A DNA stretch of 64,000 nt from a virus, in the IMG/VR virus record IMGVR_UViG_3300032220_000699, positions 125,135 to 189,134 of that record; one strand, written 5' to 3'. The notes under the pieces were generated by a model that was given only the letters and a program-made list of their open reading frames with translations, was not told the DNA's origin and ran no database searches. Position numbers and translations under genes: made by a program. Of this stretch, positions 61,224-64,000 are shown in pieces (positions within the stretch are counted from its first letter, which is position 1; each line of letters begins with the position of its first letter).

Positions 61224-63353
61224 ATGCTAGATATCTTCTATCGAGATAAATCTCAGTATCATAACCAGCTAAATCCAGTTCGAGGATATCTCGAACAACT
61301 GTCTAGTTATATTCAGATTAGTCGTAATGTTTCTAAAGAAGAAGCTGATATTAAAGCTCGTGAAGTTCTTAAGAAACATTTTAAAGATAAGAACGTTCGT
61401 TATTTTGAACGCCAAGAGAACGGTGATCGTGAAGTTAAAGACACTACGCTCTTACAATATATCAATAATAATATCAAAGAAAAGAATGTGCTTGTACCAA
61501 CATTTACAAGTTACATGAATGCTAATAAGAAAAAGAGTATGTTGTCTGAGTTTATTTTCGTCAACGTTCGTCGTCGTAGTGTGGCTAAGAAAGCTGGTCA
61601 AAAGGCCAAGGCTGAAGGTAACTTAGAACTTGCTGATGCCAAGAATAACGAACAGAATATGATGAAGATTTATAATAACTCTTTATCAGGTGCTTTTGCG
61701 CAAGCTGCTTGTATTCTTCATAATCCAACAGCTCATTCGACGTTAACAAGCATCACCCGAACAATCACAAGTCTGAGTAATGCGAGTAATGAAAAACTTA
61801 TTGCTGGTAATCGATTCTATCCTCGTGGTACTGATGTTATTAATAATGTCATCTATATTTCTACTTATGCTGACATTGAAGGCATTCGAAATGTTATTGA
61901 GACTTTTGGCTTACACATTCCAACAGTTGAAGAAACGGTTAGCGTCTTAAAATATAGTTCTGATCTTTATTTTAGAGATGAAAAGTTTTATCAAACTAAG
62001 ATAATACCTTATCTACAAAAATTATCTTGTTATCATTTAGCTGCTATTTGCTATATCGGTGATCTATATCATATCCGTAAGTTTAACGATGGATTTATGC
62101 GTACAGTTATCAATGAAATGATTCAACCTGTTACTGCTGAAGATACCGATGCAAGTGTTTGTAAAAATATTCACTCTATCAATGAAAACATTCTAAACTT
62201 TGTGCATCATATTTTCTATAGTCAAGCCAAAGGTCAAGGCAAAGACTATGATAAAATGTTTGCAAGTAAATCTGGTTTAGCTAGCAGTATTTATACAACA
62301 TCTAAACATGTCGAAGATATTCTTATCAAGTATAAGAGTTTCTTTAACTGTTTCTTTATGACTGATATTCTTCCGGGTAATTCTTTCCGTTTGAAGAATA
62401 TGCGTCGTCGTACAGTTGTTTTGAGTGATACCGACTCTACCTGCTTTACCTTGGATGAATGGGTGAAGTGGTTGTATAATGGTGAATTTCGTATTGACGA
62501 TAAGTCTATTGCTACGACAGGTGCAGTCGCATTTATGGCTGCGCAAGCTATTATTAATCAGTTAGCTATTCTATCTAAGGGTATGAATATCTCTGATGAT
62601 CATCTTAACACTTTAGCAATGAAGAATGAGTTCTTGTGGCTTGTTCATGTTCCTGCAGAAGTTAGTAAACATTATTTTGCTTATACTGTTATTCAGGAAG
62701 GTAACGTCTTTAAGGAACCTGATATTGAAGTTAAGGGTGTTCATTTAAAGAATAGTGCTGTTCCTAAGTTCGTTATTAGTGACGCTAAAGATATCATGAA
62801 ATACATGTTATCTACGGTGGCTGGTAATGAAAAGATTAAATTTAACTATATCCTTGAACGCATTATTAATCTGGAAAATAATATTCGGGATAGTGTGTAT
62901 AAAGGTGAACCTGTTTATCTTAAAAAGTCAAAGATCAAAAATCCAGAAGCTTATGCATTGGAAGGAATCAAATCTCCCTATGCTCGACATTTGCTATGGA
63001 AACAAGTCTTTGCTCCTAAGTACGGTGATATCCAAGATCCGCCGTATGACGTTATTAAGATTCCTACAACGATTACATCTAAACCAGCATTGAATGCTTG
63101 GATAGAGTCTATTGAAGATAAAGACTTAGCTGCACGTTTAGTTAAGTGGTTAGAAGAGAATTGTAAAAAAGATCTTCCAACAATTTATCTTAATAATACA
63201 TACGTTATGGGTAGTGGTATTCCTGACGAAATTATGCGTATCATTGATATTAAACGAATTATTCTAGATGTGACTATTCAACATAGAGTTATTCTTGAAA
63301 CGTTGGGTGTTATGCTATATAGCGATAAGCTTGTTTCTGAACAATTTAACTAA
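61224..63353 (+). CDS. Split family-B DNA polymerase, C-terminal subunit (motifs B and C), phiKZ gp50-like
   Basis: Motif B KIYNNSLSG, motif C VLSDTDS, SKHYFAY, EVKGVHLK; no exonuclease or motif A in this ORF. Confidence 0.85.
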   Translation: MLDIFYRDKSQYHNQLNPVRGYLEQLSSYIQISRNVSKEEADIKAREVLKKHFKDKNVRYFERQENGDREVKDTTLLQYINNNIKEKNVLVPTFTSYMNANKKKSMLSEFIFVNVRRRSVAKKAGQKAKAEGNLELADAKNNEQNMMKIYNNSLSGAFAQAACILHNPTAHSTLTSITRTITSLSNASNEKLIAGNRFYPRGTDVINNVIYISTYADIEGIRNVIETFGLHIPTVEETVSVLKYSSDLYFRDEKFYQTKIIPYLQKLSCYHLAAICYIGDLYHIRKFNDGFMRTVINEMIQPVTAEDTDASVCKNIHSINENILNFVHHIFYSQAKGQGKDYDKMFASKSGLASSIYTTSKHVEDILIKYKSFFNCFFMTDILPGNSFRLKNMRRRTVVLSDTDSTCFTLDEWVKWLYNGEFRIDDKSIATTGAVAFMAAQAIINQLAILSKGMNISDDHLNTLAMKNEFLWLVHVPAEVSKHYFAYTVIQEGNVFKEPDIEVKGVHLKNSAVPKFVISDAKDIMKYMLSTVAGNEKIKFNYILERIINLENNIRDSVYKGEPVYLKKSKIKNPEAYALEGIKSPYARHLLWKQVFAPKYGDIQDPPYDVIKIPTTITSKPALNAWIESIEDKDLAARLVKWLEENCKKDLPTIYLNNTYVMGSGIPDEIMRIIDIKRIILDVTIQHRVILETLGVMLYSDKLVSEQFN

Positions 63354-63395
63354 AAAAAAAGACACTACCGCGAGGTGGTGTCTTTTTTATATTCC

Positions 63396-63719
63396 TTAAT
63401 CATCAAGGAACTTGGTGTGTTCGTTGACAGCCTTTGCTATGGCTCTGTTTGTCTTACGCTTGTTAGCGAATGTCTTTACCATAACAAGCGTGTTGATAAC
63501 AGGAAGCAGAAATACAACAATTGAACAAATCTCAATCGCTGCTTTCATCACAGAGACTTCGAAACGAAGTCCAGACTGTTGTTCAACTTTCTCAACCGCG
63601 TGTTCGGCAGCCGCCACCATTTTGTTATCCCATCGTCCGCGTATCACACTGGCGGTAAAACCGATGAAGAAGAACAGAACAGTAACACCATATACAACAA
63701 GAAAGATATCTTCAAACAT
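63396..63719 (-). CDS. Small two-pass membrane protein
   Basis: Two hydrophobic segments; AAGGAG SD; promoter at 63748-63775. Confidence 0.6.
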   Translation of the reverse strand: MFEDIFLVVYGVTVLFFFIGFTASVIRGRWDNKMVAAAEHAVEKVEQQSGLRFEVSVMKAAIEICSIVVFLLPVINTLVMVKTFANKRKTNRAIAKAVNEHTKFLDD

Positions 63720-63747
63720 GTTTGACTCCTTATCGTTAAGATCTTTT

Positions 63748-63775
63748 ATTATATATGTAATTAACTTCTGTTCAA
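63748..63775 (-). promoter_or_regulatory. Putative early promoter TTGAAC-N16-TATAAT
   Basis: Recurrent motif. Confidence 0.65.
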
Positions 63776-63815
63776 ATTTACTATTAAAAAATTAATATAG
63801 TTAATATAATTATAT

Positions 63816-64000
63816 GGACAGAAATGTCGGTGTCTCTCTCTAGGTGCGGAAAAACCGTTCTGGTAGATTTCGGAAGTTAGGCTGCGCGAAATGCCATATG
63901 CCAACACTCTGGGTGCATCCCAATAAAATCTACTATTTGCTTGCTTGTTTCGTCATGGGAACTTGTGAGTTGTTGATCTCTAACCATCAGGTATGAGTGA
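63816..64000 (+). ncRNA. Candidate structured non-coding RNA (truncated by the window edge)
   Basis: TATAAT at 63805-63810; GC-enriched, no ORF; several nested helices visible by eye. Confidence 0.5.

Follow-up and report, generated by a model that had tools for sequence, protein, structure and literature searches.

Does the DNA next to the polymerase gene of an uncultured giant phage encode a functional non-coding RNA, and if so, where does this RNA begin and end, does it belong to a known family and what might it do? The preliminary description of the locus had placed a candidate structured non-coding RNA on the plus strand, at the right end of the window (the whole stretch of 64,000 nt that was analysed). 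Sequence conservation among relatives, covariation of paired bases and an excess of G-U pairs establish that such an RNA is encoded there, and its extent, architecture and genomic setting can now be described.

A single-copy unit in a narrow phage clade

The window comprises the final 64 kb of a linear IMG/VR virus record of 189,134 nt with an estimated completeness of 94%. A gene for a 'divergent family B DNA polymerase' (61224-63353; PF20286, E = 1e-198), a polymerase type found in phiKZ-like jumbo phages, lies just upstream of the RNA locus. The closest cultured phage by polymerase protein is Bacillus phage vB_BspM_AgentSmith, with only 57% identity. The left neighbour of the RNA, which is not part of it, is a minus-strand gene at 63396-63719, encoding a 107-aa protein with hydrophobic segments and without a Pfam or PHROG match. 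Homologues of this protein share 45-63% amino acid identity, and every one is encoded near the RNA; a search of IMG/VR with the protein as probe gave no relatives. A bidirectional terminator hairpin, AAAAAAAAAGACACTACCGCGAGGTGGTGTCTTTTTT, occupies positions 63354-63395 between the convergent polymerase and 107-aa genes. The record stops at window base 64000, inside the RNA gene, and starts inside a tail-fibre gene, so that its own genome offers no continuation of the RNA.

Homologues were collected via the polymerase protein, via the 107-aa neighbour together with the protein of the downstream ATPase gene, and by one metagenome pattern scan. Ten further copies of the RNA were found in metagenome contigs (L003, L013 (=L015), L016, L017, L019, L024 (=L026), L029, L028, L030 and L031), three of them divergent (L028, L030 and L031); together with the window they form a set of 11 sequences. 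In these relatives, the unit lies between the divergent family-B DNA polymerase gene and a gene for an SMC-like ATPase. A covariance model built from six close copies detects each of the eleven copies and has no second match in the phage's own genome, and each genome carries a single copy. In the window, the body of the RNA at 63816-64000 on the plus strand, cut by the record end, aligns with positions 1-185 of the 240 model positions at 204.8 bits.

The scan of metagenomes with a 20-mer recovered two true copies (L024 and L026) and four unrelated chance matches (L021-L023 and L025). The latter were rejected as homologues of the RNA, as the exact 20-mer GTAGATTTCGGAAGTTAGGC lies there in a repeated element of their own, with recurring ...CTAAGC... 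units; these four sequences are homologous to one another and not to the phage RNA. A further contig, L038, holds only 146 nt upstream of its ATPase gene, too short to be informative. The covariance models found no match in the complete 225-kb genome L011 or in L005, L007 and L009, which represent more distant jumbo phages, and only terminator-like matches in Bacillus phage AgentSmith. The core pattern is absent from the 185,579 species genomes of GTDB, the last 700 nt of the window (63300-64000) have no near or distant DNA match in the cultured-phage database, and two pattern scans of IMG/VR returned the L003 contig alone. All the copies recovered come from one narrow clade, made up of phiKZ-like jumbo phages that have not been cultured.

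When the window is compared with five relatives, identity in the RNA core amounts to 89-95%, as opposed to 60-65% nucleotide identity for the adjacent 107-aa gene and 79-88% for the polymerase gene. No other sequence in this neighbourhood is as well conserved as the non-coding stretch.

From promoter to terminator, the conserved unit measures about 240 nt, starting at TAATTATATG|GACAG and ending at a conserved terminator followed by a U-tract. The terminator reads CCCCAGGUGACUCAYAAGGUCACCUGGGG in the homologues and differs in sequence in L028; its stem comprises 12-19 bp and shows several compensatory changes. The preliminary description had correctly noted that the RNA runs past the window, but only some 55 nt, the terminator, are missing there. 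Its suggestion that the window holds the 5' end of a large phage non-coding RNA can be dropped, since 185 nt of a unit of only about 240 nt are present. A minus-strand coding sequence entering from outside, which had been named as a possible alternative, does not occur in the relatives, where the next gene lies on the plus strand, after the terminator.

Conserved sequence also marks the 5' side of the unit. Two blocks upstream of the RNA, TATTAAAAAATTAAT (63782-63796) and TAATTATAT, which runs into G63816, form a putative promoter at 63782-63815 on the plus strand; they are separated by a spacer of about 10 nt, which varies in the 9-11 homologues in which both blocks are conserved. The elements shared among the homologues are TAATTATATG and the upstream TATTAAAAAAWTAAT block, and their relation to transcription is a prediction. 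The motif occurs only once in the 189-kb genome. The proposed start behind a divergent, AT-rich promoter region holds up, and G63816 is indeed the first G of the GGACAG at which the RNA had been proposed to begin. The TATAAT at 63805-63810 exists as described, but relatives have CCTAAT, TTTAAT and other variants at this place, and it is not a conserved promoter element. What is invariant in all homologues is TATG, the G of which is G63816, the first base of the conserved transcript. In phiKZ, late promoters used by the nvRNAP carry a TATG motif with the G as +1 (PMC4666361); in the present genome, TATG is not enriched upstream of genes. On the basis of conservation, the RNA is predicted to start at or near G63816.

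Fold, strand and the absence of a coding frame

The transcript is predicted to fold, in this order, into a GNRA-capped 5' hairpin, a short CU-rich and partly single-stranded linker, a three-way-junction domain, two hairpins and the terminator hairpin. The 5' hairpin, GACA-GAAA-UGUC, lies on the plus strand at 63817-63828, exactly where it had been placed; of its four pairs, two to three show changes on both sides that preserve pairing, namely swaps from G-C to A-U or U-A and from C-G to U-A. Downstream, a hairpin GCGG-AAAAA-CCGU can be drawn on the plus strand at 63846-63858. Its sequence had been recognised, with a loop of four rather than five A residues and an end short of 63858; support for this hairpin is weak, and it is broken in L003, L030 and L031. 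Its 3' part overlaps the most conserved stretch of the RNA, CCGUUCUGGUAGAUUUCGG (63855-63873, plus strand), in which analysis of invariant columns finds CCGUU.UGGUAG.U..CGG unchanged in 11/11 sequences.

The three-way-junction domain occupies 63862-63934 on the plus strand and consists of a long stem, GGUAGAUUU/AAAUCUACU, around hairpins A and B. The stem has 9-10 bp and pairs GGUAGAUUU (63862-63870) with AAAUCUAC(U) (63926-63934); an A-U pair is replaced by G-C in L028 and by G-U in L031. Hairpin A (63876-63905) pairs GUUAGGC at 63876-63882 with GCCAAC at 63900-63905, and hairpin B, UGGG-UGCAU-CCCA, spans 63910-63922; both lie on the plus strand and contain pairs that change on both sides. 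The multi-branch fold first read from the sequence is therefore backed by compensatory changes in a three-way junction. The long stem, the GUUAGGC/GCCAAC helix and the UGGG hairpin of the preliminary description are all real, though one base has to be added to its coordinates from the long stem on.

Hairpin C (63939-63970, plus strand) is composed of an outer helix GCUUGC/GUGAGU, an inner helix GUUUC/GGAAC and the loop GUCAUG; four to five of its pairs change on both sides, and many one-sided switches between G-U and G-C or between U-A and U-G are seen. Hairpin D (63978-63997, plus strand), ACC-AUCA-GGU with a possible CUC/GAG closing helix, has two to three pairs changing on both sides, and different hairpins take its place in L028 and L031. 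The partner of GAG in this region is ambiguous and may be the 5' CUC, a local CUC or CACUC. A long-range closing helix between the 5' CUC and the 3' GAG was discarded; it was predicted by RNAalifold on the close copies only, shows no covariation and is lost with 11 sequences. Besides CCGUU.UGGUAG.U..CGG, the bases invariant in 11/11 sequences comprise an AC in the junction, AAA.CUAC and a UGU after hairpin C, and in the predicted fold CCGUU.UGGUAG, CGG, AC and AAA.CUAC form the junction.

In the model-fitted alignment of the set, 29 of 72 pairs change on both sides, as compared to 7.2±2.0 in shuffled controls and three to six in controls with slid partners, and 96% of the cells are paired. Because such an alignment is biased towards structure, the count was redone on a plain, sequence-only MAFFT alignment, where 21 of 61 pairs change on both sides (5.9±1.9 in shuffles, three to nine with slid partners), 13 of these 21 lying outside the terminator. 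None of 500 shuffles reached the observed counts of 29 and 21. The covariation among homologues that had been called for as a check is thus present in both alignments; most of it comes from the three divergent sequences (L028, L030 and L031), for which the alignment is uncertain in some hairpins. Folded separately as single sequences, these three show the same domains in the same order, and RNAalifold on the six close copies recovers the helices reported earlier. The fold z-scores of full-length homologues range from -4.5 to -6.9; the 185-nt window piece is no more stable than its shuffles (z = +0.2 on the plus strand and 0.0 on the other). Within the pairs, G-U combinations fill 68 cells and A-C combinations 8. 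This imbalance identifies the plus strand as the RNA strand.

The locus does not encode a conserved protein. Open frames exist in the RNA region, and indels of 1-2 nt, situated in predicted loops, shift them between homologues; no reading frame is conserved on either strand, and the longest frames differ in both frame and sequence. In this sense the region is ORF-free, as first reported. Small peptides that were considered as products, MSVSLSRCGKTVLVDFGS and other candidates, are broken by indels in relatives.

No match to a known RNA family was found either. Rfam 15 (4227 models, including tmRNA, RNase P, SRP, 6S, pRNA, riboswitches, ribozymes and GOLLD/ROOL/HEARO/raiA) gave no match at gathering scores anywhere in the window, and permissive searches with the window piece, the full-length L003 copy and five divergent-copy loci yielded chance matches far below threshold. 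The initial failure to assign the RNA to a family is in line with both searches. ARAGORN detects no tRNA or tmRNA gene in the window, in agreement with the earlier view that the fold is not that of a tRNA; nor is the RNA merely a terminator. A literature search turned up no description of this RNA of about 240 nt. The RNA represents a structured family that had not been described before, within a kind that is already known, the small RNAs of giant phages.

Independence from the neighbouring genes and possible roles

We consider it somewhat more probable than not (roughly 0.55) that the unit encodes a structured small RNA of about 240 nt that stands alone and acts in trans, with an invariant three-way junction that would bind a partner. 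Transcription would begin at G63816 or an adjacent base, behind the genome-unique promoter with the invariant TAATTATATG, and would end at the very strong intrinsic terminator just past the window. The product, presumably stable, would act in trans as a folded molecule; its invariant junction may contact a partner from the phage or the host, either a protein or, possibly, a small ligand, with the helices as scaffold, and action via a long antisense stretch is not expected.

The unit has the marks of an independent gene: a promoter-like element lies upstream and an intrinsic terminator with a U-tract downstream, both conserved in the homologues. Four relatives have other genes between the RNA and the ATPase gene, and each of them retains an intact RNA: in L016 and L019 it is followed by a convergent gene plus a bidirectional terminator, in L029 by two genes and in L030 by a gene of 260 aa. 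The L030 RNA, although separated from the ATPase gene, shows many compensatory changes. Conversely, the separated ATPase gene retains an upstream element of its own, CCTGAATTCTKTAGTTAA (read in L016 and L029), which indicates that this element is the ATPase gene's own signal.

These observations bear directly on the alternative that the unit is a cis-acting leader of the ATPase gene, riboswitch-like or a protein-dependent attenuator, which would sense a signal and decide between termination and read-through; in that case, the short RNA would arise as a by-product, in the manner of the small RNAs that giant phages derive from 5' UTRs. A leader accords with the distance to the ATPase start codon, which follows 35-50 nt after the terminator in 7/11 relatives (L003, L013, L017, L024, L028 and L031 among them), and with the combination of covarying helices and invariant junction bases, which is the usual aptamer pattern. 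There is also a precedent in phage 201phi2-1, in which 8/11 small RNAs originate from premature termination in 5' UTRs (PMC11512511). Moreover, L037, with an ATPase 56% identical, carries a similar promoter-fold-terminator unit of about 170 nt at the equivalent place (L037:3794-3962), with a TATG start, a terminator and a stable fold (z = -4.8); no homology of its body to the window RNA is detectable. What a leader should further possess, an antiterminator pairing conserved among the homologues, was not found: folds cut before the 3' arm give inconsistent partners, and candidate alternative pairings show all four allele combinations and hence no covariation. The terminator stem is also unusually long and strong for a switch. 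Together, the intervening genes in four relatives, one of them convergent, the CCTGAATTCTKTAGTTAA element that the ATPase gene keeps when apart from the RNA, and the lack of a conserved antiterminator alongside the very long terminator stem argue that the RNA is an independent unit. The 'long structured leader' that had been put forward as an option is kept as a minority view and appears unlikely.

If the RNA is free, it could still work by base-pairing, as a regulatory small RNA whose accessible, invariant (A)ACCGUUCU before the long stem, or whose CU-rich linker, pairs with host or phage mRNAs and changes their translation or stability. CCGUU.UGG is invariant in 11/11 sequences while its proposed partner GCGG is lost in L003, L030 and L031, and this stretch may therefore be single-stranded; the invariant CCGUUCU could be a base-pairing seed for a host target, and such regulators typically take the form of a small RNA that ends in a terminator. 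On the other hand, no site in the phage's own genome is complementary to the RNA over more than 8 nt, about 240 nt with six covarying helices exceed the needs of a seed-type small RNA, and the invariant bases cluster at the junction rather than in a loop. A Shine-Dalgarno-like complement to the 16S 3' end was considered and rejected, as it consists of AGGUGA only, lies within the terminator stem and is not conserved in L028. With moderate confidence, the covarying helices, the invariant junction and the GNRA loop fit a partner-binding folded RNA better than a seed-type antisense RNA, and we regard regulation by base-pairing as rather improbable. The L028 copy, which has other sequences in most of its helices but retains the architecture and the junction bases, fits a partner-binding fold. 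Its RNA scores only 84 bits (L028:2723-2963), as compared to 272 bits for L017 (L017:2515-2755), at nearly equal identity of the two ATPases to that of L013 (78.6% and 79.6%, respectively), a contrast which suggests that helix sequences are exchanged or change rapidly while the architecture stays constant.

The location of the RNA, in a divergent AT-rich region next to the DNA polymerase gene, brings to mind a replication-related RNA, i.e. a primer or an R-loop-forming transcript marking an origin. No primase can be identified in chimalliviruses, and it has been proposed that their replication is initiated at RNA-DNA hybrids (PMC13648698), which provides context rather than evidence. A strong terminator within 240 nt and selected intramolecular helices, including G-U pairs, point to a free folded RNA and not to a persistent hybrid; in addition, the cumulative GC skew of the record has no interpretable turning point at the locus, and no DNA-unwinding or iteron-like repeats were seen. 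A primer function of this type is thus highly improbable. A more speculative variant of the partner-binding reading, to which we give little weight, is that the invariant junction represents a new riboswitch or aptamer class, or that the unit encodes the RNA subunit of a phage ribonucleoprotein on which the replication module of primase-less phiKZ-like jumbo phages depends. Were the ribonucleoprotein case true, a dedicated primer or loading RNA would be encoded between the polymerase and SMC-like ATPase genes.

Among known systems, the closest counterparts are the small RNAs of phiKZ-like phages detected by ONT-cappable-seq, such as 201phi2-1 sRNA005 and phiKZ sRNAgp182 (PMC11512511). These are likewise promoter-to-terminator units of less than 250 nt, often located directly upstream of a conserved gene, with position and predicted structure conserved among relatives. 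They belong to another phage clade and lie upstream of a tail protein gene, whereas the present RNA lies between the DNA polymerase and SMC-like ATPase genes; moreover, they are known from transcript data and the present RNA from covariation. Riboswitch and attenuator leaders of Firmicutes resemble the present RNA in having a folded domain of covarying helices with invariant junction bases, upstream of a terminator and, usually, of a gene start. Unlike them, it has no Rfam riboswitch match and no conserved antiterminator that could be found, and it is retained when uncoupled from the gene.

Phage-encoded structured RNAs other than tRNAs also include the phi29 pRNA (RF00044), the structure of which is kept while its sequence drifts, as is the case here; there is no Rfam match between the two, and architecture and phage type differ. 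The stable RNAs C and D of phage T4 are likewise phage-encoded, structured and distinct from tRNAs, and together with pRNA they span 120-175 nt; they too differ from the present RNA in architecture and phage type. The ColE1 RNA II primer resembles it in that the fold matters and that it is encoded near replication functions, but RNA II has no terminator, continues into the origin and stays there as a persistent hybrid, whereas the present RNA ends at a strong terminator after about 240 nt.

Of the small RNAs known from phiKZ-type giant phages, almost none has a supported structure or a function. Here, a single-copy RNA gene is better conserved than the adjacent DNA polymerase gene, evolves by compensatory changes and has a sharply defined invariant core. 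It constitutes a concrete and testable candidate for a functional RNA in a replication gene block and is ready for submission as a new Rfam family. Since the clade is narrow and uncultured, its value for now is that of a lead rather than a surprise.

Putative promoter motifs and inserted genes around the locus

The leftward 107-aa gene is preceded by a promoter-like motif of a different kind, TGAAC-N-TTACATATATAAT on the minus strand (63738-63766), which recurs in the genome. Sixteen copies of TATATATGTA are distributed between 31110 and 188884 of the genome (e.g. window 63742-63751), always on the plus strand and just upstream of the starts of minus-strand genes; on the gene strand, the motif reads TGAA-N9-GTTACATATATAAT. 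It probably represents the early (virion RNA polymerase) promoter class of the phage. The TTACATATATAAT motif is similar to the early promoters of phiKZ-like phages, which are extended and AT-rich, for example AAATATATATTAT-N6-G of AR9 (PMC5312081). Another motif, ATTTTTTGA, occurs at 19 genome sites, 17 of which are on the minus strand (e.g. 170054, 168624 and 129911); most lie 20-35 nt before a start codon, and they are probably a second promoter class, middle or late. The CCTGAATTCTKTAGTTAA element of the ATPase gene is loosely similar to this motif.

In the relatives, the DNA behind the RNA terminator is a hot spot with differing inserted genes (L016:2520-3666, L019:1-276, L029:790-2318 and L030:2136-2918). 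Strain-level polymorphism at this site probably caused the assembly break at window position 64000. Some relatives also carry free-standing endonuclease-type genes on the other side of the RNA, between the polymerase gene and the RNA locus, where the window has none; these are an HNH_3 gene in L003 (12167-13141, minus strand) and a DUF723 gene in L031 (1717-2652, minus strand). The SMC-like ATPase itself contains an intein in some relatives, with a length of about 1155 aa as compared to about 800 aa (L003:13949-15805, L029:2319-5789 and L030:3001-6468). The L029 protein has a recorded LAGLIDADG domain (PF14528), and the insert in the L003 ATPase sits after the Walker-A motif GPNGCGK.
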